Below are positions 1,652 through 43,956 of a stretch of 64,000 bases of DNA, piece by piece. The notes beneath the pieces were generated by a model that had not been told where the DNA came from, did no database searches, and saw nothing but the letters and a program-made list of their open reading frames with translations. The stretch spans positions 21,549 to 85,548 of the forward strand of contig CAZIUF010000001.1 in the NCBI GenBank assembly GCA_964542665.1. The letters are read 5' to 3'. Made by a program: the position numbers and the translations under genes. Numbering within the stretch: position 1 is the first letter of the stretch; the number at the start of each line of letters is the position of its first letter. The stretch comes from an uncultured Gammaproteobacteria bacterium. Its GTDB lineage: Bacteria; Patescibacteriota; Microgenomatia; UBA1406; GWC2-37-13.

Positions 1652-2257
1652 CTACTTCTTGATCGCGTCAAATGATTTTTCCACGACCGACCAGTCCATA
1701 TTTGCAAAAAATGCGTCGATATACCCTGCACGTGCTGCACCAAAGTCCATAAAGTATGCGTGCTCATAGGTATCAAGAGCGACGATGGGTGTGCATCCCC
1801 AGACCGGATAACTATTCTGCGCATCACCGATATAGTTGAATAGGCGCTTCTCAGCGACATTCCACGCTGTCCAGACCCAACCTCGGGCTGCGATACCTGT
1901 CGCTTTCATATCTTTTTTGTATGCGTCATACGAGCCAAAATCTTTCTCAATTTGCTTCAACAACCCACCAGTTGGTATGGCTCCAGCGGCGCCCAGGTGT
2001 CCAAAATAGATCTCGTGATTGACGATGCCTCCGTAGGCAAATGTCATCTCGACTTTGAGCTCACGGATGAGCGAATAGCTTTGGTTTGCCTTGGCATAGT
2101 CGTCATCACTGAGTTTTTCGAGGTTTGAGTTGATTTCGTTGTACTTGGTGATGTATCCTTGATACAGTTTCAGGTGTTCCTCTACCGCTTTTTTGGAGAT
2201 GCCAGTCATCTCGAAAATCTTAGGTGAGAAGGTTTGGGGTGTGCGAGGTGTAAACAT
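1652..2257 (-). CDS. Fe/Mn-family superoxide dismutase (divergent)
   Basis: 201 aa with NHEIYFGHL and LDTYEHAYF motifs, corresponding to the SOD metal-ligand regions (canonical D-x-W-E-H-A-Y-Y). Confidence 0.85.
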   Translation of the reverse strand: MFTPRTPQTFSPKIFEMTGISKKAVEEHLKLYQGYITKYNEINSNLEKLSDDDYAKANQSYSLIRELKVEMTFAYGGIVNHEIYFGHLGAAGAIPTGGLLKQIEKDFGSYDAYKKDMKATGIAARGWVWTAWNVAEKRLFNYIGDAQNSYPVWGCTPIVALDTYEHAYFMDFGAARAGYIDAFFANMDWSVVEKSFDAIKK

Positions 2258-2339
2258 GGTGAAAAATTGAATGGTTTAATAACTAAAGTAATCACATAAT
2301 ACAATATTATTTTTGATTAGTAGATACCGCAATATATTT

Positions 2340-3311
2340 ATGACAGAGAATCCAGAAGGTGTTGATACTGCAGTTGCACAAGGGCGAGCTTCGTCAAGTA
2401 CTCCTGAAGCTGTGACTCAACAGGTAGCTCCTGCCGCCCAGGAAATTGATCCACAAGCAAGAGCGAGAAAAGAACAAATCGACGCTGCAACTGAATCCCT
2501 TCGCAGGGAATATGATCGAATAGGTTTGTCAGTAGATGAAGCTACTCTTAATACACAAGTAGTTGCAATGGTTGAGTCAAAGCACCCAGTCAAGTTAGTG
2601 AAAACCACTGTGGGTGAGGTTGCGCCCGGGAGTCAACCGTATTGGTCAAGAGGAGAATACCTAGGTCAACCTCAGTTTCGCTTTGACGAGCTTAAGGGAT
2701 TGTCTGATCTTGATCCCTATTCATCTAGCAAAGATAGTGGGAATCTTATGCCAATTGCCCTTCGAAGGAAAGTGATCACTGCACTTTGGCGTGCAGCCCA
2801 TACACAATCAACAATATCACCTCCAAATTGCCGGGGTATTTCAGTTGGGTCAAACGGTAACTCGTATTATTGCGAGTATGATCGGGCTTCGCATGTTATT
2901 CGGATGACTATCAACGGCACATCAATTGATATATCGAGGGAAAGAAAAGTTGCTACAACTCAAATAGCTTGGGTTTATGATGCAGATATGTTTGATGGTG
3001 TCGAAAAAAAGGCTGAAAACTGGGCACATCAGCAGCAATTATGGGAAGATGCGTGTAAATATGTTGGCGTCTTTCCAGAGATGGCAGGTTATGTTGCTAA
3101 TCTTAATCCGGAATCAGAAGATTGGGAACTAATAGATACTTCTACAGGCCAGGGAGTAAGTGGTGCGGTCGAACTTAGAGATAAAGAGGGTGCATCAGGT
3201 AAGTATATATTTCTGCCCGTGTTTGAACAGCCATTGCTTATACCTACAAACAACGAAGCTAAACTTATTCAACTTGCTCAGGCAATCCGCGATCGTTCAA
3301 AGAATGCGTAG
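2340..3311 (+). CDS. hypothetical protein (soluble orphan, starts MTE)
   Basis: Long ORF. The first ATG is at 2340; the track start at 2313 is TTG. No recognisable motif, TM helix or signal peptide. Confidence 0.6.
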   Translation: MTENPEGVDTAVAQGRASSSTPEAVTQQVAPAAQEIDPQARARKEQIDAATESLRREYDRIGLSVDEATLNTQVVAMVESKHPVKLVKTTVGEVAPGSQPYWSRGEYLGQPQFRFDELKGLSDLDPYSSSKDSGNLMPIALRRKVITALWRAAHTQSTISPPNCRGISVGSNGNSYYCEYDRASHVIRMTINGTSIDISRERKVATTQIAWVYDADMFDGVEKKAENWAHQQQLWEDACKYVGVFPEMAGYVANLNPESEDWELIDTSTGQGVSGAVELRDKEGASGKYIFLPVFEQPLLIPTNNEAKLIQLAQAIRDRSKNA

Positions 3312-3365
3312 GCCCAATGAGTAACAGCAAAAACGGCAAAGTTATGAAGACTGCTTCTGATTTAC

Positions 3366-3458
3366 TTAACTACTTTTCCACTCCTCTATCTTTTTATGAT
3401 CGCCGCCCATGAGGACTTCGGGGACTGATTGATCATCGTACTCTGCCGGACGAGTGTA
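3366..3458 (-). pseudogene. orphan copy of the last 30 codons plus stop of trmD
   Basis: Minus-strand reading gives [30 protein letters not shown]. Positions 3375-3458 match 4546-4629 at 74/84 nt with no indels. There is no upstream trmD body. Confidence 0.85.
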
Positions 3459-3485
3459 TTAATGTTAATGCACAGATCTTTCTGT

Positions 3486-4520
3486 CTATTTCGATTCAGA
3501 CTGCTCTGAAGCGAACTGTGTCGGTATAGTCAAAACCTCTTTTTTTTCAGGACCGAGTGTCTTTACAGTCAGTTTTGCAAAGTGATCTTTCCATCGTCCT
3601 GCATATGTATGAACAATTGTGTTTGGATTACCAAACAACACCCTTCCCTCTTCGGTAGCAGTTAGGGCAGGATTGGTCATATCGACGAGCCAGACTCCCT
3701 GAGCAAAATCTGGAACCCTTAACTCTACGTTTCCAGAATCAACAGTGCGCATGTTTGGCGCTATCATCGAGAGTACATGCCCCTTACCATATGGCTTGTC
3801 ATAAGGAGCTACATCTTGTGATTTTATGCCAACATAAAGCACTGAGTATTGATCAGACATATGTTTACTTCGCAACCAATGACTAGCAAGAGAGGCGAAA
3901 ACGGCATTCATTTGAGCGCAGACACCCCCGTCTAATACTAGATTTTCGTGGAGTCCAATTGGCCCTTTTCTATTCAGGTCATCTGCCTTATCCATATCTT
4001 TGATGTAGGGGAAAAGTATGCCTTGGGCGACTCGGGCGATGGATGTAGGAAAGTCACGTGATCCTCCCGGTGTTTGTTCAATATCATGATCAACCATCGC
4101 CACCAAACCTCGAGTGATAGTTGACTCTATATGTCCTTCCCTCGCAATCTGTTCGGCATTTGCCGCATCAGCATGTGGACCCAGATACTCTGCCACTGAT
4201 TGAGGCACAACACTTGGGTCGGTAATTCTTACTTTCTTGAGTTCTTTTTTGGCGCTTTTGATATCACCAGGTACTACGTCATATCCTCGAGCAAATACAT
4301 GTGCAGCCTCACGGATAGCCTGTCCTGCCAATTCTATTTCCCCATTTTTCCATCGTCCTACTGCATTCTCTACTAGATCATGCACCTCATGTATTGTCTG
4401 ATGCCGATCATATAGAGTGGTATTTGGGAAAGATCCTTCTAGCCCATAGATGTCGTCATCTGTGTTTTCTATCTTAATTGGAATTTCTCCAGGCGGTATT
4501 AATCTAGTCTGTTCAACCAT
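3486..4520 (-). CDS. hypothetical protein (starts MVE); possible transglutaminase-like Cys-His-Asp fold
   Basis: ATG at 4520, 10 nt after the trmD stop. The longer track ORF to 4751 overlaps trmD. Motif order GGVCAQMNAVFASL ... GKGHVLSMI ... GVWLVDMTNP resembles the G-x-C / H / D core of transglutaminase-like peptidases. Confidence 0.6.
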   Translation of the reverse strand: MVEQTRLIPPGEIPIKIENTDDDIYGLEGSFPNTTLYDRHQTIHEVHDLVENAVGRWKNGEIELAGQAIREAAHVFARGYDVVPGDIKSAKKELKKVRITDPSVVPQSVAEYLGPHADAANAEQIAREGHIESTITRGLVAMVDHDIEQTPGGSRDFPTSIARVAQGILFPYIKDMDKADDLNRKGPIGLHENLVLDGGVCAQMNAVFASLASHWLRSKHMSDQYSVLYVGIKSQDVAPYDKPYGKGHVLSMIAPNMRTVDSGNVELRVPDFAQGVWLVDMTNPALTATEEGRVLFGNPNTIVHTYAGRWKDHFAKLTVKTLGPEKKEVLTIPTQFASEQSESK

Positions 4521-4530
4521 TAGTGTGTAT

Positions 4531-5160
4531 TTAGGAAAAAACTTCTTTCCACTCCTCAATCTTCTTATGATCCCCACCCATGAGGACTTCGGGGACTGAT
4601 TGACCATCGTACTCAGCGGGTCTGGTGTACTGAGGAGGTTCTTTTGTATATTTGGTATACGTCTCATTTTCTGCAACTCCATCTTTGGTGAACGTCCCGG
4701 GAAGAAGACGTACGACAGCATCAGTGATGACGGCAGCAGGCAACTCGCCACCAGTCAGGACGTACTCGCCGATTGAGATCTCTTCGTGAACATATTTCAG
4801 GATCCGCGCATCAACTCCCTCATAATGTCCACAGATGATCACGAGATGTTTTCGAGTGTCTGCATATTCACGAGCTTTTTTCTGAGTGAAAAGTGTTCCG
4901 CCAGCTGCGGTCAAGATGACATATGACTCATCAGTCACGACTGACTTGAGCGCTGCATGCAGCACATCGACTTTCATAATCATACCGGCTCCTCCGCCAT
5001 AGGGTCGATCATCGACAGAACCATATGAATCAGTTGCGAACTTCCGGATATCTACATAGTCCACCGTGACTGCGCCTTTTTTCTGGGCTTTGCCCACGAT
5101 CGAGGTCTCGAGGATACCTCGCATCATATCGGGGAAAAGGGTGAGTATGGTGATACGCAT
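4531..5160 (-). CDS. trmD: tRNA (guanine37-N1)-methyltransferase
   Basis: MRITILTLFPDMM...DDRPYGGGAGMIMK...ISIGEYVLTGGELPA. These are classic TrmD motifs. Confidence 0.95.
   Translation of the reverse strand: MRITILTLFPDMMRGILETSIVGKAQKKGAVTVDYVDIRKFATDSYGSVDDRPYGGGAGMIMKVDVLHAALKSVVTDESYVILTAAGGTLFTQKKAREYADTRKHLVIICGHYEGVDARILKYVHEEISIGEYVLTGGELPAAVITDAVVRLLPGTFTKDGVAENETYTKYTKEPPQYTRPAEYDGQSVPEVLMGGDHKKIEEWKEVFS
4546..4629 (-). repeat. proximal copy of the 84-nt direct repeat (functional trmD 3' end)
   Basis: Collinear with 3375-3458. There are 10 mismatches, 9 of them synonymous in the trmD frame. Confidence 0.9.
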
Positions 5161-5200
5161 AGAGAAATATGAGATAATAAGCTTGAGTTATTATAGCATC

Positions 5201-5407
5201 ATGACAGGACAAATAATCATATATCTCATCCGCATCTATCAAAAGACCGAGCCAGTACGGGATGGTATCATGCGTCAGCTCCACTTCCCTCGACACATAT
5301 GTAAATACAATCCTACGTGTAGTGAAAATATGATTATCCAGATCCGTAATCATGGGCCAATAAAAGGGGTAGCGCTTGGATTCAAACAGATACTTTCATG
5401 TCACTAG
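5201..5407 (+). CDS. yidD: membrane protein insertion efficiency factor YidD
   Basis: Internal ATG of track ORF 5066-5407: MTGQIIIYLIRIYQK...CKYNPTCSENMIIQIRNHGPIKGVALGFKQILSCH. This carries the YidD signature (IRxYQ, C-x-Y-x-PTCS, RIL-x-CH). Confidence 0.85.
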   Translation: MTGQIIIYLIRIYQKTEPVRDGIMRQLHFPRHICKYNPTCSENMIIQIRNHGPIKGVALGFKQILSCH

Positions 5408-6028
5408 ACGGGCTTTGTATCCTGGATGAGATTTTGTGTGGCTAAACACAGGATAAAAGTCACCAGTCGAAATAAAATCTTCGTATTCTCCGAATTCAGT
5501 GATCACATCAAAGACTTCGAAGATCTTTGGTTCGACGAGAACTTTTCCTTTTTTAAGATTTTTTATCCACCCAGCTACTCGCTTAGGCACTTCAGAATCA
5601 GTGTGCCCTCCACACTCGATAACTACACCCCTTCGTACATGGATTAAGCTTCCATTAATAATATTTCCTGAACGCGGAAAATATACGGCATGCTCTATGC
5701 CTGCAATAGCGGCAAGTGCTGACATAGATCTATCTGTCACCACACAAAAAGGGACAGTGACATGTGATGCGGTGTGCAAATCTATTACAAATGCGTGGGA
5801 AGAAATCGTTTCCAATAGATAGCGCGCTCTACCCGATTCGTAATCAGAGCCATCGGTATTTTCAAATGCTCTATTGAGATCTTGATCTATATATCTCACA
5901 CGTTTTTCTAATGCCTGGGGATTGCCCACGAGATGTGGGACTCCAGCAAGCTGGAGTCCCTCAAGAGGGAGGGGTTCACTGCCGTGAACCCCTCCCACAA
6001 ATATGATCGACTCAAATGGGATGTGCAT
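5396..6028 (-). CDS. succinylglutamate desuccinylase/aspartoacylase (AstE/AspA) family protein, short form
   Basis: GGVHGSEPLP, RYIDQDLNRAF and VIDLHTAS match the family zinc-site motifs (GG-x-HG-x-E, DLNR, DLH). Confidence 0.75.
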   Translation of the reverse strand: MHIPFESIIFVGGVHGSEPLPLEGLQLAGVPHLVGNPQALEKRVRYIDQDLNRAFENTDGSDYESGRARYLLETISSHAFVIDLHTASHVTVPFCVVTDRSMSALAAIAGIEHAVYFPRSGNIINGSLIHVRRGVVIECGGHTDSEVPKRVAGWIKNLKKGKVLVEPKIFEVFDVITEFGEYEDFISTGDFYPVFSHTKSHPGYKARLVT

Positions 6029-6034
6029 ATATAT

Positions 6035-7066
6035 TTATGAAAAAGTAATTAGACCCGTTATTGAGTCTGATGATCCATGAATTTTGAGATTTGGTCGGGT
6101 GACATATGGACTCGGAATAAGTTCGTATTTTCCCGCATCTGTCATGACCGCAAATAGACGCATTAGTTTATGATGGGTAATTCCACCCTGATCTATGGTC
6201 CCAGTTGGAATAAATGGCTGACAAATACAAGGGCCTGAGCCAATTGCACGGGCCACTTGACTTCGTGTTGCCGATCCTTTTAATCCATTTGATTTTGGTA
6301 CCCAGACCTGCACATCTTTTCCTTTTGATCCATGTAAAGGTTTTACACAGCATGGTTGATCAAAATTAATATCTGCAGCTGTATTTACCAGAGTCGCCAT
6401 TCCCAAGCCTACCATATATGATTTATCACCGTGATCGATGAGAGGTGCTACAGATTTCGAATTGATTATTGTTAAAAGATCTTGACCAATCAGATCTCCA
6501 TCTTCTTTACCACCACGAGCCCATAGGTGGCCGTGGAAATTCACCATATCAAACGGATCTGAAAGATATGGTATTCGCGCTGCTTGAGCGAGCATAAGTG
6601 TGTCGATACTGCGATCGTGACCACCAGAAACGCCACGGACACTTGGAAGTACCGCACACGCAACCGGTTGCCCAGTCAAACGCGAAACACGTTCAAATAC
6701 ATCCGCGATCGGTTGTGCACCGTTCAGGATGCCGGTTAGTAGACCTAGACCCGATGGCCTCGCCTCGACTTCATAGATGCTCTGTTCTGGATGATTAGTA
6801 TCGACAATCGATGAGGCATCGATGCGTACGATCGGAGATGGAAGCCCAGTGATTTCTTGGAAGCGTGTTTTGTGTGGTTGACTAGTTTCTCTGTGCGCAG
6901 CGATGAAATCACCATTCAAGAAACCTTCAAAGGCATGCTTAACATGGACTGGAAGTTCCATTTCAGGACCGATGGTGAGTGCAAACTCACCATATGATGG
7001 TCGACATATTTCGGGTTGTTTTGGTATAGCATGACGCGCAAGCACGTCACACTCAATAGGTGACAT
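6035..7066 (-). CDS. hypothetical protein, possibly an ATP-grasp-like ligase with permuted motif order
   Basis: YEVEARPSGLG (E-x-N-x-RP-x-G-like) lies near residue 95 and VKPLHGSKGKDVQVW (KP-x-x-GS-x-G-like) near residue 240. It sits 6 nt upstream of the AstE-like gene. Confidence 0.4.
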   Translation of the reverse strand: MSPIECDVLARHAIPKQPEICRPSYGEFALTIGPEMELPVHVKHAFEGFLNGDFIAAHRETSQPHKTRFQEITGLPSPIVRIDASSIVDTNHPEQSIYEVEARPSGLGLLTGILNGAQPIADVFERVSRLTGQPVACAVLPSVRGVSGGHDRSIDTLMLAQAARIPYLSDPFDMVNFHGHLWARGGKEDGDLIGQDLLTIINSKSVAPLIDHGDKSYMVGLGMATLVNTAADINFDQPCCVKPLHGSKGKDVQVWVPKSNGLKGSATRSQVARAIGSGPCICQPFIPTGTIDQGGITHHKLMRLFAVMTDAGKYELIPSPYVTRPNLKIHGSSDSITGLITFS

Positions 7067-7854: not shown

Positions 7855-7882
7855 GCGCACCCTTCGTCAAGCTCAGGGTGAC
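7855..7882 (-). repeat. hairpin mini-repeat, copy 2 (inverted relative to copy 1)
   Basis: The reverse complement reads GTCACCC-TGAGCTTGACGAA-GGGTGCGC. The 13-nt loop is identical to copy 1, and the stem triplet covaries (CCC/GGG versus TGG/CCA). It ends about 10 nt before the tal ATG. Confidence 0.75.
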
Positions 7883-7892
7883 AAATTTACAT

Positions 7893-8780
7893 ATGAAATT
7901 TTTCCTCGACTCGTGTGATCCAGCTGCGACCCGTGAGATGAAGTCAACGGTCGGCAAAATCGATGGCCAGACGACCAATCCCACCCTGCTCGTGAAAAAC
8001 CCTGAGGTCCAAAAGCGGATCCAAGGAGGTAAGATCAAAGAAGTAGATTTACTCGCTTTGTACAAGCAAGCTATCCAAGAGGTCGACTCAGTGATTCCCG
8101 GTGGTGCGATCTCCATCGAGGTCTACTCTGATTGGAATACCCCAGCCAAAGAGATGCTTCGTCAAGCTGAGAGTATGTATGCATGGATCCCCAATGCGTA
8201 TATGAAGTTCCCTACTATCCCCGAAGGGTTGAAGGCAGCATATGAGTTCACCTCAAAAGGTGGCCGAGTGAATATGACTCTCGTATTTGATCAAGAACAG
8301 GCAGCCGCAGTCTATAGTGCGACAAGAAATACGAAGTCACCTGCATTTGTGTCACCTTTCTTGGGTCGCTGGGATGACCGTGGGTATCAGGGTGTCGATC
8401 TGGTAAAAAATATCGTACAGATGTATCGCGCATTTGATAGCGTTCGTCATCCTGAGCAACGCGAAGGATCTCACAAGAAATCTCATGTCGAAGTCCTCGC
8501 CGCCTCCATCCGCACCATGGATCACTTTTATGCATCTATCGCATATGGCGCCGATATCATCACCGCTCCACTCGCGACCTTTCAGAGGTGGGTCAGTGAG
8601 GGTCGTAAGGTACCTGAAACGTTTGAGGTGTCAACGAAAAATCTCCAGTCGATCCCATACAAAGATCTACAATACACTGATGATTTCGCATCCTATCAGA
8701 TCGACCGGAGCGAAAGTGGACTCCTCCATCAAGGCCTCACCAAGTTTGTGAGTGATTGGGATGGAGTCGTGGAAAGATAG
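7893..8780 (+). CDS. tal: transaldolase family protein
   Basis: MKFFLDSCDP...GQTTNPTLL...EVLAASIR...GADIITAP. Start placed at the internal ATG that gives the canonical MKFFLD N-terminus. Confidence 0.85.
   Translation: MKFFLDSCDPAATREMKSTVGKIDGQTTNPTLLVKNPEVQKRIQGGKIKEVDLLALYKQAIQEVDSVIPGGAISIEVYSDWNTPAKEMLRQAESMYAWIPNAYMKFPTIPEGLKAAYEFTSKGGRVNMTLVFDQEQAAAVYSATRNTKSPAFVSPFLGRWDDRGYQGVDLVKNIVQMYRAFDSVRHPEQREGSHKKSHVEVLAASIRTMDHFYASIAYGADIITAPLATFQRWVSEGRKVPETFEVSTKNLQSIPYKDLQYTDDFASYQIDRSESGLLHQGLTKFVSDWDGVVER
8446..8473 (+). repeat. hairpin mini-repeat, copy 3, in-frame inside tal
   Basis: GTCATCC-TGAGCAACGCGAA-GGATCTCA. It encodes the VRHPEQREGSH segment just before the conserved EVLAASIR block. 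Confidence 0.6.
8748..8779 (+). repeat. proximal copy of the 32-nt direct repeat (functional tal 3' end)
   Basis: GTGAGTGATTGGGATGGAGTCGTGGAAAGATA(G) encodes VSDWDGVVER*. Confidence 0.85.
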
Positions 8781-8783
8781 GGA

Positions 8784-9038
8784 CTATCGCGGATCTTCTG
8801 GGTCTTGATCAGTCAGAGGAGACGTAGTATTCACCTTTGCTCCATCTATACTAGTGGTACCACGAACACCGCCTCCAGTACCTTCTATGGGTATTCTCCG
8901 ATGTGCAGTGATTGGTAGAGGCACATCATTTCGTGCCAACTGTTCTTGTGCTATTTGTCGTATATCGGGGACTGGTTTTGGTTCACCAGGTGGCCTTGTC
9001 ATTGTAATCATTGGGTTTCCAATTGAGTTTTCCGTCAT
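8784..9038 (-). CDS. hypothetical 84-aa protein (starts MTE), cargo of the tal-uppS insertion
   Basis: The only sizeable ORF in the 340-bp insert. There is a TTGATT-N17-TAATCT promoter-like sequence upstream on the minus strand. The protein is Pro/Gly/Thr-rich with no known motif. Confidence 0.4.
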   Translation of the reverse strand: MTENSIGNPMITMTRPPGEPKPVPDIRQIAQEQLARNDVPLPITAHRRIPIEGTGGGVRGTTSIDGAKVNTTSPLTDQDPEDPR

Positions 9039-9119
9039 CTTTAGATGAATAAACTAACTTATATAACAATCTTCTTAGATTACTCTCTCACTTTATAAAA
9101 ATCAAGCATTACTTATCTA

Positions 9120-9151
9120 GTGAGTGATTGGGATGGGGTGGTGGAAAGATG
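9120..9151 (+). repeat. distal copy of the 32-nt direct repeat (remnant tal end overlapping the uppS start)
   Basis: GTGAGTGATTGGGATGGGGTGGTGGAAAGATG(A) encodes the same VSDWDGVVER*, with TGA overlapping the uppS ATG (ATGA). Confidence 0.85.
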
Positions 9152-9868
9152 AGCTATAATCTGCACATGTCAGATGACAAAGTATCGGTTCCAGCCCACA
9201 TCGCCATTATCATGGACGGCAATCGTCGCTGGGCTCGTGCCCAGGGTAAGGAGTCACTCGAGGGTCACAAGGCAGGAGCTGAAAATCTCGAGCGCATTGC
9301 AGAATATGCCGCGTCTATCGGGGTCAAAACACTGACTGTCTATGCACTCTCAACTGAAAATCTCACCAGTCGTATGGGACGAGAACTGCAAGGACTCTTT
9401 GACCTACTTGTCTGGGGATTCAAACATAAAATCAAAAAGCTGGTCGAAAAAGGTGTGCGGGTGAATGTACTTGGCGATGTGACTCAACTTCCTAAAACAC
9501 TCCAAAGACTCATCGCTTCGCTGAAGCAAACATATAAGGACAAAGAGTCATTTACACTCAACATCGCACTCAACTATGGGAGTAAACAAGAGATCCTACA
9601 CGCAGTCAAGGCACTGATTAAAGACGGTATCGATATCAACAAGATGACTGAGAGTGATATCACATCGCGACTCTATACCAAAGATCAACACGAGCCAGAT
9701 CTGGTGATTCGTACCGGTGGCCAAGTGCGACTTTCGAATTTCTTACTCTGGCAATCCAGCTATAGCGAGCTTTACTTTACCAAAACCTTCTGGCCTGACT
9801 TTGGCCCTGCCCAACTGGACGAAGCTGTCGCTTGGTACCAAGAACAAAAACGCAACTTTGGAAAATAA
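9149..9868 (+). CDS. uppS: undecaprenyl diphosphate synthase
   Basis: HIAIIMDGNRRWA, ALSTENL and RTGGQVRLSNFLLWQ motifs. The start is taken at the ATG that overlaps the remnant tal stop. Confidence 0.9.
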   Translation: MSYNLHMSDDKVSVPAHIAIIMDGNRRWARAQGKESLEGHKAGAENLERIAEYAASIGVKTLTVYALSTENLTSRMGRELQGLFDLLVWGFKHKIKKLVEKGVRVNVLGDVTQLPKTLQRLIASLKQTYKDKESFTLNIALNYGSKQEILHAVKALIKDGIDINKMTESDITSRLYTKDQHEPDLVIRTGGQVRLSNFLLWQSSYSELYFTKTFWPDFGPAQLDEAVAWYQEQKRNFGK

Positions 9869-17046: not shown

Positions 17047-20000
17047 TCACAGTCTGGTTATGACTATATTACGACATGTGTTAGATTGTGCATCTGCTGA
17101 ACATGTATAAACAAGACTACACGATGTTTTTGAATTGGGAGGAATAATATCGATAATATTATTGCTCAGATTGCCTCCAGGCGCTCCAACACAATTATCT
17201 GTTCCACCAACTAAGATCGGTTTTATTGCTGATTCGCTGCAATAGAGTCCATCATCAGTAACTATGGTTACGCGATTGCCAGGTATGGTTACTGGCAGAA
17301 CTACAGGCTGGGGACCATGAGAGCCACCTTGATAACGCAAAGATGTTAACGGATCTAATGGGCAGTTGACACCAATATCTGCTTGACTACGATCCACCAG
17401 TAGTTCAACTTGGTTGAAGCTATTAGTTTTATTTTCTTTCTTACAATATGAAGCATTGGTCAGATACCAAGTGCCTGTAGTCTTCGGTACAAAGGTAACT
17501 GCTCTCTCTCCGCTTACCTCATAGATAAAGTCATCATTTGCATCTTGTTGACTGATAGTGGCGCTTTGTGTTAGTACGTCATATCCGGGCAGTGTGATAA
17601 ATGCATGTGCATCGGCGTTTGAGTTTATCATTGTCAATCTCAAAGCAGTGTCTTTTGTGATCGAAATTTCTGCTGGACTCGCAACACCACAGTCAAATGA
17701 GACGGTTTTTTCCACTGGAACCACATCTGCTGCTACCATAGTCAAGCTTGAGTCAAGTCCTCCAGTTGCGCGCTTGAGTTGTGCGATTTGGACGGTATTG
17801 GCGACATTGAGGATGCTCACACCCACAAGCAGCGCGCTTGCAACAGCAACACCTCCTGCAATGGTCTGATGGACCAAGAGACGTGAGAGCAATGCTCTTG
17901 CAGCACTATCTGCGCCAGGGTTAGAAACTTTGATGATGAGAGCATGCTTTGATTGGAGTTTGAGAACGATAAAGAGCGCACCAAATCCAAGTACTCCAAA
18001 TACGAGCGGAGCAATCAAACTATTTCCTGTATCGGCAAGTGTACCCCCTTTGGTGGTGACACCAGCAACGACACCATCATAAGTGAGCGATACGTCTGCA
18101 CAGTCGTCTTCTTTGTTCTTGCCTCCATCACAGTTATTTGGTGTTGAGTCAGTATCCTGCTGTTCTGCATGATATACCTCGGCGAGATTGGTGAGTGCGT
18201 CTCTACTGACTACGAGAACTTTGATCTTCAGGGTTTGAGTCGAGAGCGCATTGAGATTGCCAATCGTCCAGATACCACCCGCCTGGTCGTATTGACCATA
18301 GCTCGTCTCATGAGAAAGGTATGCAAATGAGCTGGTGAGTAAATCTTTGACTTTGACATTGAGCGCTCCGACTGCTGACTCGTTGGCGATAGTGATAGTG
18401 AACTCGACTCTGTCGCCTATCTTCACCTTTGATTTATCAACAGACTTGATCAGCTTCAGATCGATCTTGGCCGGTGTTGGGGTAAGAGTTGGGGTGACGG
18501 GTGGAATAGTGACTGATGGAGTTATCCCGGTAGGATTAGGCGAAACTGATGGGGAAATAGATGGCGATACTGACGGAGAGACCGATGGGGAAATAGATGG
18601 TGAGACTGATGGCGAAGGTGAAGGGGATGGAGTTGCAGTGACATCAATACACTTGATATCGTTTGCTGTACTACCAAACCGACTAATTACATTGGTCCCA
18701 GTTACGACAGCTTTGTCACATATACTCGCTGAGGTTCTTGTGCCGAGTGGATACGTCACTGCATAGATGACGCTCGCATATGACTCACTTGATGGATATT
18801 TTTTAAGAGTCAGATTTGTTTTCCCTGCACTGACTGCAAGCATGGCTTTGTTCGAAACTCCGTTGAAAGCGGTATTGATCTGTGCGCTGCGTAGATTGAT
18901 GCCATAAACTGAACCGGCAATCAGCGAGACTGGTCCTGTTGCTGCACTATTTTCCATATCGTCAGTGATCTGTACATTTTCGACATCTTCTGTAATGCTG
19001 ATATTTTTCACCGTGATCATATATGAGATCGTTCTGCTTACATCGAGAGTATCTATAACAGAGACTATGCGCTTCTCTGTCACGAGTGCATTTGTAGGTG
19101 CCGTCTGACAGTCAGCGCTTGCAGGGTACGCTTCATTGACACATTTGTTTGTGGTGGGTGAGCAATAGTTCGTCGTGCACTGTGCATTTTGAGTACAAGC
19201 TTCCTGACAGGCCAGTTTCCGGGATTGATAATGAGCAGGATTTGTGACTGGTGTCAAAGCAATGTTGTTATATTTTGCATTCAAAGTTGCTGTGTTTTCA
19301 ATGTCACCATCAAGAGCTCCATTTGTGGCAGATGCTGTACAAATCATTTCACTATTGGGAGCAAGGGAGGGACCACCTGTACAGACAAAGGGTGATATTT
19401 GCGAGTGGCCATTTTGGGTATTGAGAAGATCTGTAATTGCTACTTCATTCAAAGTGACATTACCGGTATTTTTAGCAGTGAATCGATATTGCACTTGTAC
19501 ACTCGCATTGATGATTGGTTTTGGACCATTGGCGGTATCGGCTGGTAGATAGTCGGCTGCTGTGCCACCCTTCACATCTTTGAGGAGCGTCATTGCAGGA
19601 GATCCGGTCGGACAGTTAGTGACAACGTCAGCGCTCCAATCACCGTCGCATGACAAAGTATTGGTGGTTGTTTCGTTTGCATCGCCGTCAGTAAGGATCG
19701 CTGTGCACTGATGACAGGTGATATAACGAGACGCACTGCAGGATTGAGATGTTACACCCCCGTTGATACCTCCACAAGTCCAGCTAACCGTCTCTCCAGG
19801 TGCAGGAAACGGTACGGGACTCGGACTCGGTGTTCCAACACCACACAATGTGCTGTTTTGAGGATAGCTGCTCACCGTTGCTCCATATGGAGTGGGTGAG
19901 CTTGCGGTACCGCACGTGCCATTGATTTTTTCAGGAGCCTGACATGTAACTGATGATGATGGGAAAGTACCTGTGCATGTCCACGACCATCGGTGATTTA

Positions 20001-21042
20001 TAGTATCGTGGGTAACAGTAGATGCAGTCCCTGAGGTACACAGAGTGCCGGTTGGCTCAGTATATGTTGGGTTGGTAAGTGCGCTATTGCACACAGCTGG
20101 TATGGTCCTGTTTGCACTACACGAAGGAGTAGCGCCCCCGTTCAGCCCCCCACATGACCATGTCCACCCTGTAGCGGTGGTAATGAAATTGGCCACTGAG
20201 CCAGTACTACAGAGACTTGGTGTGTTTAGAAGGTCGTTCTGATTGCTTCCATTTATGCTGCTACTACATACACCGTCGATGGGAATCGGTTCTATATCAA
20301 TGATGATATTGGCTGGACTAGTACCAGGACCATTCAACGCATTGACGAGTACTGCGGGGCTACCTATTGGCTCAGTGCCATCGCGTGTTACAAGATAGTT
20401 TTGTCCCTTGACCCTATATCCATCAGGAGGAGTTGTGTTACGTACAAAAAGATATGTCTTATTGATTCTACCGTCGCAATTTCCTCCACACCAATTACCT
20501 ATGTTATTTCCACCGATAATATTTGGAGGGTTAGTACTGCGTATGTAGTTTGAACAAACATCGTTGAACCGAGTGTCGTTATTATTGAATCCAGCAACAA
20601 TAGGATTGTTATTTGCGGTGAATGTAAATAGCGGACACGAACTATTTATACAAGATATATACGATTGGTCTATAGATCTATCAGCACACCTAGTGGCACC
20701 AGTATCTGACCAGGAACACAAATAATACATATAGTTTTTGGCTGCAGTTGCTGCATCTGTTGATACAATTTTTTCCTCTGGATCATTTGAAAATATATAC
20801 CTACCCTCGCTATCTGTTCGTGAACTGACAGACCCCTCAAACTTGACATAGGTATTGCCCTCAAAGTGCCCTCCCTGCTTACTCACTATCTGACCAGTAG
20901 CATTCACAATAGCTCCAGTATCAACATAACGAAATTTAACATTGCCTTTGATAGTCCCAGGTATACCTGCCCATACAGGCATCACCGCACTAAAGTAAGT
21001 GATAATCAAGATGAGTATGGTGACGACGTATTTCAACTTCAT
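17047..21042 (-). CDS. giant surface protein (1331 aa): signal peptide, CarboxypepD_reg-like domain, 3 four-Cys modules, DUF11-like repeats, SP/TP linker, internal LADTG sorting signal, second TM helix, cupredoxin-like tail
   Basis: MKLKYVVTILILIITYFSAVMPVWAG signal. Repeated YRFTAKNTGNV / ITVKNIS / FTITIANES DUF11-like strands. TLADTGNSLIAPLVFGVLGFGALFIVLKLQSKH lies about 325 aa before the C-terminus. Confidence 0.85.
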   Translation of the reverse strand: MKLKYVVTILILIITYFSAVMPVWAGIPGTIKGNVKFRYVDTGAIVNATGQIVSKQGGHFEGNTYVKFEGSVSSRTDSEGRYIFSNDPEEKIVSTDAATAAKNYMYYLCSWSDTGATRCADRSIDQSYISCINSSCPLFTFTANNNPIVAGFNNNDTRFNDVCSNYIRSTNPPNIIGGNNIGNWCGGNCDGRINKTYLFVRNTTPPDGYRVKGQNYLVTRDGTEPIGSPAVLVNALNGPGTSPANIIIDIEPIPIDGVCSSSINGSNQNDLLNTPSLCSTGSVANFITTATGWTWSCGGLNGGATPSCSANRTIPAVCNSALTNPTYTEPTGTLCTSGTASTVTHDTINHRWSWTCTGTFPSSSVTCQAPEKINGTCGTASSPTPYGATVSSYPQNSTLCGVGTPSPSPVPFPAPGETVSWTCGGINGGVTSQSCSASRYITCHQCTAILTDGDANETTTNTLSCDGDWSADVVTNCPTGSPAMTLLKDVKGGTAADYLPADTANGPKPIINASVQVQYRFTAKNTGNVTLNEVAITDLLNTQNGHSQISPFVCTGGPSLAPNSEMICTASATNGALDGDIENTATLNAKYNNIALTPVTNPAHYQSRKLACQEACTQNAQCTTNYCSPTTNKCVNEAYPASADCQTAPTNALVTEKRIVSVIDTLDVSRTISYMITVKNISITEDVENVQITDDMENSAATGPVSLIAGSVYGINLRSAQINTAFNGVSNKAMLAVSAGKTNLTLKKYPSSESYASVIYAVTYPLGTRTSASICDKAVVTGTNVISRFGSTANDIKCIDVTATPSPSPSPSVSPSISPSVSPSVSPSISPSVSPNPTGITPSVTIPPVTPTLTPTPAKIDLKLIKSVDKSKVKIGDRVEFTITIANESAVGALNVKVKDLLTSSFAYLSHETSYGQYDQAGGIWTIGNLNALSTQTLKIKVLVVSRDALTNLAEVYHAEQQDTDSTPNNCDGGKNKEDDCADVSLTYDGVVAGVTTKGGTLADTGNSLIAPLVFGVLGFGALFIVLKLQSKHALIIKVSNPGADSAARALLSRLLVHQTIAGGVAVASALLVGVSILNVANTVQIAQLKRATGGLDSSLTMVAADVVPVEKTVSFDCGVASPAEISITKDTALRLTMINSNADAHAFITLPGYDVLTQSATISQQDANDDFIYEVSGERAVTFVPKTTGTWYLTNASYCKKENKTNSFNQVELLVDRSQADIGVNCPLDPLTSLRYQGGSHGPQPVVLPVTIPGNRVTIVTDDGLYCSESAIKPILVGGTDNCVGAPGGNLSNNIIDIIPPNSKTSCSLVYTCSADAQSNTCRNIVITRL
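18025..18039 (-). other. LADTG (LAXTG-type) sortase recognition motif, internal to the ORF
   Basis: Codons CTT GCC GAT ACA GGA on the minus strand, followed by a hydrophobic helix and a KLQSKH charged patch. Confidence 0.7.
18549..18620 (-). repeat. tandem 36-nt coding repeat (SPS[IV]SPSVSPSV linker)
   Basis: GATGGGGAAATAGATGG recurs with a 35-36-nt period on the plus strand and encodes the Ser-Pro linker. Confidence 0.7.
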
Positions 21043-23075: not shown

Positions 23076-23744
23076 CTATAGCTCTACTGGTAGTGCTCTG
23101 ACGACCAGTCGCTGTTTTGAAGTCCAGAGTGGGGTGCATGTATAGAGCGTCAGGGCAGACTCTGTGCTTGGCTCCTCTATTTCTACGTCTTCGGGTTCAA
23201 CTACTTTCACCTCATCGACTCGATAGGAGTACTCTTTACCACCCCAATATACGATGATATCGTCCCCTTTTGATACTTTATTGAGATCATAAAAAGTATT
23301 TGGGCCAGATGTATAGAGGAAGCGGTGACCCGTGATCACTGTATTGCCGCCTTTGTCAGGCGTAGAGGTTTTTGGCCGACGCCAAAAACCTCGATTGAGT
23401 GTCTGAGCATCTGCACCATCCAGGATAGGAGCATCAACGTTGATCTTTGGGATCACCAGTGTATTAGCAGTGGGTATGGCTTTCAGATCGTTTGGTTTTG
23501 TTTTAATGAGTCCCTTTTTTATCATCTCTCGAGCAAAGCTCGATTGATATACATATCCACCTGTTTTATCGGTGGATTTGCGCCACAGTCCAACGATCTC
23601 TCCTGCAAAAGGCGTCCATAATATATAGGTGATGAGGATGAGGAAGATGATCGTGAGAAACCGGTTCACGAGGGCAAGGATCCGATCAACTGGGTCCTCA
23701 GCGAGAGTAAACATGGTGGCGTGCTTAGATGAGTCCTGGGGCAT
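23076..23744 (-). CDS. sortase (class E-like by its LAXTG substrate)
   Basis: N-terminal TM helix, ITGHR (catalytic His), TLYTCTP (TL-x-TC catalytic Cys) and a conserved Arg near the C-terminus. Confidence 0.85.
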   Translation of the reverse strand: MPQDSSKHATMFTLAEDPVDRILALVNRFLTIIFLILITYILWTPFAGEIVGLWRKSTDKTGGYVYQSSFAREMIKKGLIKTKPNDLKAIPTANTLVIPKINVDAPILDGADAQTLNRGFWRRPKTSTPDKGGNTVITGHRFLYTSGPNTFYDLNKVSKGDDIIVYWGGKEYSYRVDEVKVVEPEDVEIEEPSTESALTLYTCTPLWTSKQRLVVRALPVEL

Positions 23745-26440: not shown

Positions 26441-26917
26441 ATGCCTCATATCCATAAAGAGATTGACTACACCGTTGATGTGTATATCGTCTGCAAAAAG
26501 AAAGTTCTTCTTCGACTTCATGAGAAGTATCATCTTTGGCTTGTCCCCGGTGGTCATATTGAACTCAACGAAACTCCCGAGGAGGCTGCGTTGCGCGAAG
26601 CAAAAGAAGAGACTGGACTCGATATCAGTTTATATGTCCCATCCTCGTTTGTGAATATTCCAAATGATAATGGTCATGAGTTGATTCAACCACAGTTTTT
26701 GAACATTCACGATATCCCTGGACTTCCCCATCGTCACCAGCATATGAGCTTCGTGTATTTTGCAACAAGTACCAATGATGCTATCAAACCTACCTATGAG
26801 TATGATCGATCAGATGATTATCTTTGGCTGACTGCGGAAGAAGTAAAAAATAAAAAAGATATTAAAGAGCAAACGAGGCACTATGCTCTCTCTGCACTCG
26901 CAGCTTTGTCAAAATAA
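26441..26917 (+). CDS. Nudix hydrolase
   Basis: Nudix box GGHIELNETPEEAALREAKEETGLD. Confidence 0.85.
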   Translation: MPHIHKEIDYTVDVYIVCKKKVLLRLHEKYHLWLVPGGHIELNETPEEAALREAKEETGLDISLYVPSSFVNIPNDNGHELIQPQFLNIHDIPGLPHRHQHMSFVYFATSTNDAIKPTYEYDRSDDYLWLTAEEVKNKKDIKEQTRHYALSALAALSK

Positions 26918-29900
26918 TCCCTCTTCAAACTCTTTGTTTTGCAGTGACATCCAAAATGGATACCAGTCGCTATCTGGTGCACATGGTCGGTCCCAGAATG
27001 CCAGTGAGAGTATCTCTGCGGTGACTCTTGAAATGGTTTTTTCGAGTTCTTCTACTTCTTCATTTGGTATCTCGAAGATCTCTTGATGCAATTTACCTTT
27101 GTCATCAGCCTGGACAAAGTCAATCATCCCAGACTCCATCTTGAGATCGGGATGCTGCAGCTTAAGCAGTAGTTTATAAAAGACCAGCTGTCGATAATAT
27201 CCTCCGTCGCCATCTTTGGTATCTCCCACGATATCATTGCGTGATCGAGCCTTCCCCGTTTTCCAATCCCTCACTTGCAAACGTTTGCCGGTAACATCTA
27301 AGTATTCTATGAGGTCAAGCTCTCCGTTGAGTGGAATTTCTTTAAGCTCGGCGCTTGCAGCTTGCAGCTGGACTTTGATCCTTTGTTTTACTCTCACATT
27401 TCGTGGCATTGTGTCCTCATACGCGAGGTAATAGGTACGCAGATGTTCACGACCACGCTCGAGCGCTCGCACCAACTCTTCAGCCGAAAAATGTTCTTTT
27501 TTTGCTGACATTTCAAATGCATTCAGCAAATAGTCCAATGACTTTTCTCCACTCTCTTTGTAATGTGAGAAGAAATATGACAGTGCATTGTGGATCGCAT
27601 TTCCGTACATGAGCGTCTCACTTTTACCTTGTGGTATGCGCACAAGATTCACATAAAAATATTTCCATGGATCTTCCAGGTAGTTATTGAGTGCGCTAAC
27701 TGATAGCCCATATCGATAAAATGATCCGTGAACAAAGTCGAGAAAACGAGTACGAGAAGGAACCAACGAATAACTGCGAGCTTCAAGCTGCGAGCTATCT
27801 GCGCTAACAGCTGTAACAGCCTGTAGCTTTTTTAGCTTCTCATCAATATCAGCGATATATGCAGCCGGGAGGATCTTCTCTCCCGCACTGTCGTGTTGCG
27901 AATACAGTATGGTGAGATGTTTGCGGGCACGAGTAAGTGCGACAAAAAATAGTCTTCGAGATTCCGCATCATCTGCATCATCCTCTTCTTGCAACTTGTT
28001 GCTCGCATCTTGCTGCTGTATATAGATACTCTCTGGCAACTTAAAAAGCCCCGCTCTGCCCTTGCCACTCCATACTTTTTCCTGTGCATAAGGGATATAG
28101 ACATGATCAAACTCAAGTCCTTTTGATCCATGTGTGGTCATGACTTGCACCTTACCGGTGGGTATTGTGTACAACTCAACCGGAATACGTACCCCATGTT
28201 CCTCTACTTTGGAATAGTATGCAAAAAAGTCAGCAAGCTTCCATCGTCCATCACGATCAAGCGAGGTCAGAGTGTCGTAAAGTAGTCGAAGAGGCGCTAC
28301 TGACTCAATGGGGTTGTCTGATTTTGCTAGATATTTCAACAAACCCGACTCGTCAGTCACCGTATGTATGAGGGAGTGAACATCTGTATTATGCGCTTGC
28401 ATCGACCAAGTACCAAGTTTATGAAAGAAATCATATATTGCTATAGCTTTCTCCGCACCTATCTTTACTAGCTCAGATTTGTTTGACAGCAAATCAGCAA
28501 GTGATCCCCGTGATTGGCGAGCAGTCTGGGTGATCTGATATACCAAAAGTGGATCAAAACCCAAGAAATCGAGAGTGAGTACATGGAACAGTTTTACTTC
28601 ATCACCAAAGTCGTGAACACTACGAAGCAATCGGAGTAATCTATCAATTGTTGGTGTCTCAAAAATATTTTGTGATTTGCTCGCATAGGTCGCGATCCCT
28701 TGAGATTGGAGATAGTCACTGACGATCTTTACATGTTTATTTGTTCGCAACAATATCGCTATTTCATGTGCAGGTGTACCCTGACTGATATCTGTCTCGA
28801 TCGATTTCCAGAGCTGTACCAACATCGATTGTTCATCTACTGTTTCGATGATAGAGATTGGTTTATCAGTATGTCCGGCTTTGGCAGTGAGTTTCTGATC
28901 TTGAGCAGTTGGAATCATGGTAATCGCGCTATCAAGTATCGTCTGAGTCGAGCGATAGTTATCAGTCAAGGTGATGATGGTAGCGTTAGGATACAGTGTG
29001 GTGAATCCTCTAAAGTTGGCAATCGATGCGCCTTGGAATCTATAGATGGCTTGCTTTTCATCACCAACGACGAAGATATTAGGCGATTCATGAAAGCTCA
29101 TCAGCTTTTCTAGAATTTTGTTTTGGGCGTTGTTTGAGTCTTGGTGTTCATCAACGAGCACATACTGATAGCGCTCCATGAGGCGTAGGGCAAAGTCATC
29201 ATTAGTAGTTAATTTTTGTAACACTTGCATGATCAAGTCATCGTAATCATAAATATCATTCTTTTTCATATCTTCTTGATAGAGTGAATAGACTTGAGCA
29301 AGCTCTCGATTTTTCGCGATTTGCTTTTGCCAATCTTGAAAAACTCCTTTGAGACTTCCCTTTTTTCGCGGGCTTTCTTTATCAGGAGTAGCATCAAATC
29401 GCAATTGTTCATCATCAACGATCTTCGTAAACTCGTCTGGTCGCACGCCCTCGCGCTTGAGATCTGAAATCGCTCGGATCATCGCGCTGACATAAAAGTA
29501 CGGCTTGCCATAGGGGCGGATCAGTGCAAACTTTTCCCTATCGATGATTTTTTCAACGATCTCTATCTGCTCGACTTGATCAGCGAGTCGGGCGCCGAGG
29601 ATATCCCAAAAATCATCAGGGTGATCGTTGATCACGTGCTGACAAAATGCATGAAAGGTATAGATGCTCGTCCCGTATGCCTGGGGACCGATGATCGACG
29701 CGAGGCGTTCCTTCATGTTCGTTGCAGCAGCGTTGGTATAGGTGATAGCAAGTATATTGGCCGGAGTGATCTGAGTATGCTTGAGAATGTTTGCGATGCG
29801 CAAGGTGAGGATCTGAGTCTTACCCGTCCCTGGTCCTGCGATCACCATGACAGGCCCCTCAATCGCATCGACTGCTTGTTTTTGAGCTCGATTGAGCTTT

Positions 29901-33120: not shown

Positions 33121-33131
33121 GTCTATACCGT

Positions 33132-38411: not shown

Positions 38412-38996
38412 ATGAAGAGTCTACTCCGTCCTCTGCTTGTCATGATCATCTTGTGCGGGATAGTATTTCTCACCAAGGCCCCTCTCAAGACGTATTTTGA
38501 AGACCCACTCGCGTCGATATCGCCTGATTATATGTATGATCTACCCAAAGGTTTACGCTCAGAGAAAACTCATGTTGTCAGTGTTGCCGACGGTGATACC
38601 ATCACCATCACTGGGGGTGAACGGGTCAGGTTTTTGAATATGGATACGCCTGAGCTATCACATCCTGAGCAATACATCAGGGAAGAGTGTTTTGGCAAGG
38701 CGGCTACCTTGCGTTTGACTCAGCTGATAGACAACAGGGATATAGTTATGATCGCAGATGTAAAGGATAAGGATAAATACAAACGTCTCCTCCGCTATGT
38801 TTTCCTCCCTCTCTCAGGTCAACCAGAGAAATATCTCAATGTGAATGCCTATATGGTCGGCGAAGGGTTTGCGCGGGTCTTTATCGTCGAAGAAGGTACG
38901 AAATACAAAGATGACTTCTTCGCCTTTGAAAAACTGGCCAAAGATGCTAAAAAGGGGCTCTGGGGATCGTGCGATCGGAGCAAGTTCAGATGGTAG
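38412..38996 (+). CDS. secreted thermonuclease (SNase-like)
   Basis: Signal/anchor helix. VVSVADGDTITI...RVRFLNMDTPE is the staphylococcal nuclease motif. Confidence 0.85.
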   Translation: MKSLLRPLLVMIILCGIVFLTKAPLKTYFEDPLASISPDYMYDLPKGLRSEKTHVVSVADGDTITITGGERVRFLNMDTPELSHPEQYIREECFGKAATLRLTQLIDNRDIVMIADVKDKDKYKRLLRYVFLPLSGQPEKYLNVNAYMVGEGFARVFIVEEGTKYKDDFFAFEKLAKDAKKGLWGSCDRSKFRW

Positions 38997-43930: not shown

Positions 43931-43956
43931 CGAAAAACTCATATATAATCAGTGTC

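Follow-up and report, generated by a model that had tools for sequence, protein, structure and literature searches.

Integrative elements insert at the 3' ends of tRNA and protein genes, bring a replacement gene end with them and leave direct repeats of the gene end behind. In the mitochondrial atp6 gene of Allomyces, Paquin et al. reportedly found in 1994 that a foreign C-terminus had come with a mobile endonuclease open reading frame (ORF) and that the original C-terminus had been left downstream. Published surveys infer gene transfer from composition or phylogeny, and the gain of ORFan genes in uncultivated bacteria of the Candidate Phyla Radiation (CPR) is, to our knowledge, poorly known. 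Displacement of gene ends has been described at rhs loci as "C-terminal displacement" (2009, PMC2935791): an intact gene is followed by start-less fragments that repeat its conserved part and carry differing tails, and circular intermediates have been proposed. In Vibrio cholerae, displacement of type VI secretion system (T6SS) effectors adds a module behind a conserved upstream anchor and pushes the old module downstream, where immunity genes and 3' ends of effectors stay behind as orphans (Kirchberger et al. 2017, PMC5361080). In E. coli, duplication of a homologous segment (109-950 bp) around an insert marks a circular molecule that has entered by a single crossover; homology-facilitated illegitimate recombination (HFIR) yields an insertion combined with a deletion of about the same size, and joints with 3-10 bp of microhomology (PMC3240628). 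The present analysis concerns a scar of this general anatomy at the 3' end of trmD in a 64 kb stretch (the window, in what follows) of contig CAZIUF010000001.1, which belongs to a metagenome-assembled genome (MAG) from a strain-rich population. Homology-driven additive integration with 3'-end displacement describes its mechanism best; events of this kind are known, and here they are found at CPR housekeeping genes and with ORFan cargo.

The working trmD gene is intact, and an 84-nt segment from its end is present a second time, behind one inserted gene. The parts of the locus are these (coordinates are those of the window):

4531..5160, minus strand: trmD, intact, 209 aa, ending ...EEWK-EVFS and stop (Pfam PF01746, E = 1.1e-46)
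4546..4629, minus strand: proximal copy of the 84-nt repeat, codons Y178-K205 of the working trmD, 74/84 identical to 3375-3458
4531..4545, minus strand: new four-codon tail EVFS with TAA stop, without homology to the tails of relatives
3486..4520, minus strand: ORF344, the cargo, an ORFan of 344 aa whose ATG lies 10 nt past the trmD stop
3459..3485, minus strand: 27-nt spacer that separates the orphan from the stop of ORF344; 3458/3459 is the putative illegitimate junction
3375..3458, minus strand: orphaned trmD end, the distal 84-nt copy, preceded by in-frame stops (H-stop-H-stop) and without gene body
3355..3374, minus strand: the orphan's own tail, SS with TAA at 3366-3368, and a remnant of homology to the native trmD tail and terminus of relatives
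2340..3311, plus strand: ORF323, a convergent accessory gene, 332 aa when counted from the TTG at 2313, without Pfam match
1652..2257, minus strand: Fe/Mn superoxide dismutase (SOD), which bounds the variable spot on its right as a conserved flank (Pfam PF02777 and PF00081)

The two copies (3375-3458 and 4546-4629) are collinear at an offset of 1171, with zero indels and 74/84 nt identical; they emerge as family D2 from a repeat search which, like the accompanying self-BLAST (69-nt core, E = 1.4e-22), was run over the whole 64 kb. Both edges are abrupt, the 60-nt flanks matching at 12/60 and 18/60 positions, which is chance level. (In the trmD frame, both copies encode YTRPAEYD(G/D)..., and the distal copy ends ...EEWKSS.) The order between them is the EVFS tail and stop, a 10-nt spacer, ORF344 and the 27-nt spacer. 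Their ten differences, four transitions and six transversions involving all base types, are spread over the whole length, and the longest identical run is 27 nt. At the 3458/3459 joint neither extended homology nor any resemblance to the part of trmD that precedes codon Y178 was found, and no terminal inverted repeat, attC-like structure or terminator hairpin was detected at the cassette ends. An earlier note on this DNA had described a duplicate trmD 3' end (74/84, no indels, sharp edges) with a single ORF between the copies, starting 10 nt past the trmD stop, and a distal copy with its own stop and without gene body; on recomputation all of these statements hold. Its remark that integrase and transposase are lacking is likewise borne out by a Pfam survey of window ORFs of at least 170 aa and of the genes around the locus, in which no integrase, recombinase, transposase or reverse transcriptase was found.

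The differences between the copies are overwhelmingly silent. Eight codons differ silently (9 nt, AGA/CGT accounting for two) and one carries a replacement (GGT/GAT). When 10 random substitutions are introduced, starting from either copy and with kappa set to 1 or 3, an outcome of at most one amino-acid change and no stop is seen in 0-1 of 100,000 trials; the site counts are 16.5 silent and 67.5 replacement, for which a 9:1 division has a binomial P of 3.6e-6. A stricter null, in which a constrained working copy is compared with a drifting orphan (expected silent:replacement 1:2), yields P ~3e-4 by hand calculation from the site counts. The silent excess to which the earlier note had drawn attention, 9/10 differences, is significant against the codon-aware null (P <= 1e-5).

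The variants that make up this excess are those of functioning genes. (Relatives for comparison were drawn from a protein collection rather than from the GTDB species representatives, among which the top trmD match is merely 55% identical; those with nucleotide context are L082, an independent Joint Genome Institute (JGI) assembly of another strain, L083, L085, L087-L089, L090-L092 and L094-L098.) The closest trmD and transaldolase proteins are labelled Candidatus Roizmanbacteria (CPR/Patescibacteria), and the window trmD is 97-98% identical in amino acids to the Roizmanbacteria-clade proteins P0002-P0004. Full-length trmD proteins ending ...EEWKSS and stop exist (P0247, 207 aa, on 11 contigs, and P0256), and the sole replacement in the orphan, YDDQSV, is present in the full-length alleles P0250, P0252 and P0253 (contigs up to 73.6 kb). 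The orphan shares its ACT CGT codons with L091 and L092; the intact copy shares ACC AGA with L082 and L094 and GGT GGG...ATT with L092, and each of its silent variants is found in natural alleles of L082, L092 or L094. Both copies are drawn from working trmD alleles, and since the variants of the orphan are those of natural working alleles, nothing in it needs decay as an explanation. The copies are as diverged as alleles of different lineages (allele divergence across trmD is about 7-11% among the compared strains), and the insertion event is young relative to that divergence. The full-length EEWKSS and YDDQSV genes support the proposal that the two alleles each evolved as working trmD ends.

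The ancestral state of the site is preserved in relatives. The closest one with context, L082, has a trmD that is 98% identical in amino acids and 90% in nucleotides. Against it the intact gene of the window aligns down to 4546 only (the alignments to L082, L087, L091, L092 and L094 stop at most 1-3 nt from this position), and the orphan aligns through 3355 (104 nt, 87.5%), its homology reaching 20 nt past the internal repeat into the native tail of the relatives (SNQASQK and stop). L087-L089 (trmD 89%) have one trmD end, with SOD immediately behind it. To this one end both copies of the window can be aligned, which shows that the site was once empty; the extra tail homology and the arrangement in L087-L089 together indicate that the orphan holds the ancestral position of the trmD end and that the EVFS tail was added along with ORF344. 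The earlier note's one-gene insertion at the trmD end is thereby upheld, as is the core of its inference that one allele came with the inserted gene. The SOD side is collinear with L082 and L087 from 2311/2257 onward. Between it and the orphan lies the lineage-specific ORF323, which is absent from L082 (a PP2C-like gene stands there) and from L087 (where there is nothing). Homologues of ORF323 at least 90% identical are found in 7 cluster members. P0258, which belongs to the ORF323 family, occurs on 17 contigs, the longest of which (7674 nt) is as long as the longest one of the EEWKSS-terminated trmD P0247.

The same anatomy recurs nearby. The repeat search and self-BLAST find one further local direct repeat in the 64 kb, at the end of the transaldolase gene, 4 kb from the trmD scar. 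The earlier note overlooked this second instance, a transaldolase-end orphan beside uppS:

7878..8780, plus strand: transaldolase, the working gene, ending ...VSDWDGVVER with a new TAG stop (Pfam PF00923)
8748..8780, plus strand: proximal transaldolase-end copy, 31 nt and stop, 29/31 identical to 9120-9150
8781..9119, no strand assigned: 339-nt cassette, holding an 84-aa ORF (8784-9038, minus strand)
9120..9152, plus strand: orphaned transaldolase end, fused to uppS by the ancestral ATGA overlap, 32/33 identical to the empty-site end of L094
9149..9868, plus strand: uppS, undecaprenyl diphosphate synthase, with its ATG (9149-9151) inside ...AGATGAGC and its start overlapping the orphan stop

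Both differences between the transaldolase copies (8748-8778 and 9120-9150) are silent, and the stops are TAG and TGA. The 339-nt cassette is absent from eight empty-site relatives (L087-L089 and L094-L098), in all of which the transaldolase TGA overlaps the ATG of uppS (Pfam PF01255, Prenyltransf, in the relatives); in the window, the working copy has its new TAG followed by unrelated sequence, and it is the orphan that keeps ...GAAAGATGAgctataatct, as at all eight empty sites. (By BLAST against L094 the orphan may extend back to 9101.) The 84-aa ORF is unique to this genome (a cluster of one), with a third-position GC content (GC3) of 0.28. Given the ATGA overlap, only an insertion that duplicates the transaldolase end would keep both genes and the translation signals of uppS. 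Non-duplicating insertions would leave no scar, and gene-end orphans may thus be the visible part of a wider hotspot turnover.

At this same site L082 has an orphaned transaldolase end of its own, 51 nt long (3441-3494; working end 4640-4693), with an unrelated 353-aa gene inside. Both orphans, that of the window and that of L082, retain the TGA/ATG overlap with uppS, and the two cassettes show no homology above shuffle level (score 31, shuffle maximum 28); near the orphans there are apparent ATTACT-like motifs. Two replacement-type changes in the 5' part of the L082 orphan suggest that it is an older relic. The L082 cassette gene has 7 members in JGI assemblies (6 besides L082); the longest contig of one of them measures 8635 nt, as does that of the matching transaldolase P0130, which suggests that cassette gene and transaldolase share one contig. 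When ~880 kb from 80 other bacteria were scanned at the protein level for orphaned C-termini, nothing but paralogues and repeat elements emerged. Within the window, a third candidate, in which the C-terminus of ORF 36966-38066 resembles 33059-33136 (3.8 kb downstream, same strand), amounts to a gapped 43% identity over 30 aa (E = 0.002, from a search of small size) and was judged spurious. As a separate matter, transaldolase residues 184-209 (window 8427-8504; RAFDSVRHPEQREGSHKKSHVEV here) form an internal loop that in close relatives is hypervariable: P0125, P0126 and P0128 have 8 residues fewer, and P0127 and P0129 have ~27 more, the longer loop being Gly/Arg/Ser-rich.

With both scars in view, the comparison with described systems can be made point by point. 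Like integrative elements, these inserts are bounded by gene-end direct repeats and leave a functional gene; unlike them, they have no integrase and no conserved att core, the repeat length is variable, and the content is one ORFan gene of 0.3-1.1 kb. With Allomyces atp6 the trmD locus shares a working gene with a foreign end, an inserted ORF and an orphaned original end; it differs in lying on a bacterial chromosome and in that no endonuclease domain was detected in ORF344. The likeness to rhs is closer. Behind the working gene, at trmD and at transaldolase alike, stands a start-less 3' fragment with a different tail, as in displacement of the rhs and contact-dependent inhibition (CDI) type, and the variation in repeat length, the arrival of the new tail with lower-GC downstream DNA and the orthology of displaced ends across strains are also those of rhs (PMC2935791). 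Unlike at rhs loci, the targets are housekeeping genes (trmD and transaldolase), the exchanged part is 0-4 residues, which brings no functional diversification; repeat lengths are 31-84 nt in place of hundreds of nucleotides, and the cargo is an ORFan and not an immunity gene. Membership in polymorphic-toxin systems is rejected, the genes being trmD (PF01746) and transaldolase (PF00923) and the cargo belonging to no known family. The V. cholerae T6SS case (PMC5361080) resembles this one in its upstream anchor, in the downstream displacement of the old end, in having no integrase and in the mosaicism of the strains; selection through an immunity gene is not applicable here, and the scar consists of the duplicated homology segment. 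In Campbell-type integration at E. coli lacZ (PMC3240628), finally, the insert lies within a direct duplication of the shared segment, as it does here; the E. coli segments are 109-950 bp and identical, and those considered here are 31-84 nt, 6-12% diverged and from a natural population, with a circle that is inferred.

This last comparison underlies the mechanism that we favour, with about even confidence: that the trmD scar is a 3'-end displacement by additive integration, in which a circular molecule entered through a single homologous crossover. The resident order would probably have been trmD (...EEWKSS and stop), convergent ORF323 and SOD. The incoming DNA, from a diverged relative, would have comprised the allelic last 84 nt of the conserved part of trmD, the EVFS tail with its stop and ORF344, most likely as a circle that an illegitimate joint, now seen as 3458/3459, had closed. 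One Campbell-type homologous crossover at the chromosomal trmD end, probably within the 27-nt stretch of perfect identity, would then give, in order, the trmD body, a hybrid end, the new tail, ORF344, a second hybrid end (the orphan), the old tail and the old neighbours; trmD would be kept intact, its old end would be displaced 1171 nt downstream, and no dedicated recombinase would be called for. The same process may have acted at the transaldolase/uppS boundary, where the duplicated end would also save the overlapping uppS start. The insert is flanked by a direct duplication of the gene-end segment, as a Campbell-type single crossover predicts, and it is this duplication, matching that of circular single crossovers (PMC3240628), that favours the circle over HFIR. 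The circular intermediate, the position of the crossover inside the repeat, the resident side and the route of DNA entry are what we infer from the arrangement. If the copies are swapped at the 27-nt core, they match L082 at 82/84 and L092 at 80/84 positions, the actual copies scoring at the median, and the summed swap score is reached by 16/1024 possible assortments of the ten sites, a post hoc result obtained with the finely mosaic alleles of a mosaic population.

Several considerations weigh against this mechanism. Natural transformation brings in linear single strands, not circles. The trmD alleles are finely mosaic, and the swap result could reflect background assortment; a four-strain trmD comparison finds pervasive mosaicism, with neither copy assignable as resident or donor. 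For a RecA-type crossover the 31-nt homology at transaldolase, in which the identical runs measure 17 and 10 nt, is very short, so that this case needs either a longer original repeat (perhaps 51 nt) or short-homology recombination. The donor order, trmD-EVFS-stop-ORF344 without an orphan, and its circular form are unsampled. The independent contigs L001 and L093 cover 4266-5913 and 2295-3390, and neither reaches the 3458/3459 joint. The polarity could also be the opposite one, the incoming piece being the orphan together with ORF323, anchored on the SOD side. This alternative was overlooked by the earlier note, whose claim that one copy came with the inserted gene is otherwise supported; a reading in which ORF344 is incoming is the more economical, ORF344 being unique to this genome and the ORF323 family widespread (P0258 and P0247, 7674 nt).

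HFIR acting on linear DNA from a relative is an unlikely but serious competitor. The left crossover would occur by homology in the trmD body and the right end would be joined illegitimately at 3458/3459; this right joint would lie 84 nt upstream of the end of donor/recipient homology, so that the resident end would be duplicated and not deleted. Natural competence is known in the CPR, where it is documented for Saccharibacteria only (PMC10633639), and HFIR is the mechanism proposed where T6SS effectors of V. cholerae are displaced and leave orphan 3' regions (PMC5361080). The variation of junction positions (84, 31 and 51 nt) is fitting for illegitimate joints, and an anchor of hundreds of nucleotides sidesteps the difficulty of the 31-nt homology. 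The window trmD has 55 differences from L082 in its first 486 nt and 5 in its last 129 nt, which hints at a foreign tract that reaches ~45 nt upstream of the repeat; this breakpoint signal is weak (maximum chi-square 5.8 against L082), and the population is mosaic anyway. Microhomology cannot be scored without the donor. At transaldolase, HFIR needs a donor without uppS behind the gene, and 8/8 sampled empty-site relatives show the overlap. The product described for HFIR, moreover, combines an insertion with a deletion about as large, the duplications having come from circular single crossovers (PMC3240628), and the trmD recipient end is duplicated, not deleted. HFIR after DNA uptake with its anchor in trmD, one of two mechanisms offered by the earlier note, keeps some probability and fits the observations less well. 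An in-situ duplication, with foreign DNA caught at a staggered break or by a template switch, the copies initially identical and the working copy later overwritten, is quite improbable. Its appeal is that the left junctions coincide with the stop or lie close to it, with 0, 1 and 4 codons added, as though the gene ran on into the insert, that duplication is the sole way to insert at transaldolase/uppS without destroying the overlapping uppS start, and that the population recombines on a fine scale. Drift from identical copies predicts mostly replacement changes in the orphan, and 9/10 are silent (P ~3e-4); as the orphan variants are natural ones, either both copies would have to have been overwritten or the working copy replaced right up to the insert boundary, and we know of no bacterial mechanism that yields target duplications of 31-84 nt. 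In-situ duplication followed by drift is rejected on the silent excess together with the working-allele status of the orphan.

The second mechanism of the earlier note, site-specific integration at an att site in the gene end, with the integrase encoded elsewhere and the element bringing the replacement end, is disfavoured and in our estimate very improbable. Direct repeats of a gene 3' end around a restored gene have the classic look of an integrative element, and the genome is seen over 64 kb only. Within the survey described above, neither the element nor the window holds an integrase, recombinase or transposase, and the cargo is a single ORFan without phage, plasmid or viral relatives. The differences between the trmD repeats, 12%, are spread throughout, with no identical core bounded by arms; repeat length differs between two strains at one and the same site (31 and 51 nt); and the trmD and transaldolase repeats are unrelated, having in common only the heptamer GTGGAAA. 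(Both repeat families end with this heptamer, and the transaldolase orphan contains GGTGGTGG; as a shared recombination motif GTGGAAA is rejected as coincidence, with 13 matches against 8.7 +/- 2.8 expected.) That the MAG contig concatenates two haplotypes, trmD-EVFS-stop-ORF344... and ...trmD-SS-stop-ORF323-SOD, is the chief technical reservation, and we consider it similarly remote. The MAG does come from a strain-rich population in which many alternative contigs branch at this locus, and strains with a full trmD-SS-stop exist. Against an artefact stand the absence of Ns at the junction and the spacing of insert-specific and orphan-specific bases, 5-14 nt apart, for which an assembler would presumably need reads that span the joint. 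The longest identical run, 27 nt, is shorter than common k-mer sizes. The proximal junction from trmD to ORF344 is confirmed by the independent Logan contig L001 (100% over 4266-5913), and L093 (99.8%), the sole contig found on the other side, ends at 3390, 16 nt into the orphan. The same anatomy is also present at transaldolase/uppS and, with other cargo, in the independent JGI assembly L082, whose cassette gene occurs on further JGI contigs.

The trmD end that received the insert is a site of wider variation. All sampled lineages (L082, L087, L091, L092, L094 and P0244-P0256) are conserved to ...EEWK, that is, through codon K205 (window 4546-4548), and diverge at once thereafter. At least 11 tails are found: EVFS, SS, SNQASQK, GSQ, ETNETTK, KTTSTN, SKKF/SKKY, DSQTSQ, GSHIKLEV, EKCSS and NQIQKT. 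The genes that follow trmD differ as well, being a PP2C-like phosphatase in L082, a 354-aa ORF with an HGDVKPEH motif in L091 and small ORFs in L083, with nothing in L087. The trmD end is a hotspot, the left edge of the variable spot lying inside the trmD reading frame. The lineage-specific genes of the window (2340-3311, 3486-4520, 5396-7066 and 8784-9038) have GC3 values of 0.28-0.36, compared with 0.42-0.55 in core genes, and keep the coding-like order of first- and second-position GC content, GC1 > GC2.

Other breaks are seen in individual contigs around this spot. In L090 (893-1196, on a 1.2-kb JGI contig), trmD follows that of L082 at 99.6% identity as far as the middle of the 84-nt segment (past ...CTCATGGGC); what comes next is unrelated and carries a NifU-like gene on the opposite strand, which marks either another breakpoint within that segment or a chimeric contig. 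The short JGI contigs L083 (from 1250) and L085 (before 462 and after 1316) match L082 at 100% over trmD, and the match breaks off sharply, either within the PP2C-like gene or right where trmD starts; these reflect structural variants or branches of the assembly graph in one population. In L092 (1118-2162), the homologue of the 343-aa accessory gene of the window (6035-7066) is split into overlapping ORFs of 171 and 181 aa and is probably a frameshifted pseudogene.

A displaced gene end in pristine condition is a mechanistic footprint: it points to a cargo that came linked to the working core-gene allele of a diverged relative and that was integrated by way of that homology, without identifiable mobile-element machinery. 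The scar is found twice in 64 kb and once more at the same site in a related strain, which makes orphaned gene ends a searchable marker of recent additive integrations, usable for finding hotspots, for dating events and for telling real insertions from assembly noise in MAGs. The trmD and transaldolase scars are a clean natural footprint of this kind and not a new system; they extend to housekeeping genes an anatomy, C-terminal displacement, that was known at toxin loci, and the gain is incremental rather than conceptual. A more far-reaching possibility, which we regard as doubtful, is that Roizmanbacteria, and perhaps other CPR bacteria, trade lineage-specific genes as integrase-free gene-end cassettes. 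These would be circles made up of the end of a housekeeping gene (a few dozen nt) and one cargo gene; they would dock by homology, excise again via the flanking repeats and pass between lineages. Such traffic would explain why every sampled lineage has a differing tail and gene after K205, and accessory-gene flux in these streamlined genomes would be organised around such gene ends.

The cargo of the trmD scar, ORF344, matches itself alone among 5.8 billion protein clusters, and among 1.84 billion representatives it has one weak relative, P0122 (E = 1.8e-4). It has no match in Pfam, PHROGs or PADLOC, and neither the protein nor either gene-end sequence has a match in phage, plasmid or viral collections. 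Its composition is coding-like (GC1 0.59 > GC2 0.39), with a GC3 of 0.35 that is below that of core genes. The alignment with P0122 conserves LDGxxC, KGH and DxTNP, and ORF344 is possibly a papain- or transglutaminase-like enzyme of the Cys-His-Asp type; a single-sequence AlphaFold model (predicted local distance difference test, pLDDT, 35) is unusable. ORF344 is too rare to be the transposase or integrase of a self-mobilising element. Three other kinds of element were considered for the locus and rejected: a diversity-generating retroelement (no reverse transcriptase in the window survey, and mismatches that are not adenine-specific), an integron cassette (no attC-like inverted repeat at the cassette ends and no integrase in the window survey) and a free-standing homing endonuclease with co-converted flank (no endonuclease match for ORF344 in Pfam or PHROGs).

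Elsewhere in the window there are genes whose products are possible players in DNA entry and recombination: a VirD4/TraG-like coupling protein (59462-61825), an AddA-like helicase-nuclease with UvrD and PD-(D/E)XK parts (26909-29932), a staphylococcal-nuclease homologue (38412-38996) and an Exo_endo_phos-family (endonuclease/exonuclease/phosphatase) protein (43879-44754). A gene for a 1331-aa DUF11/DUF7507 surface protein (17047-21042) adjoins a sortase gene (23076-23744) and contains, at 18539-18634, a 12-nt tandem repeat that encodes Gly-Glu/Asp-Thr/Ile-Asp units.

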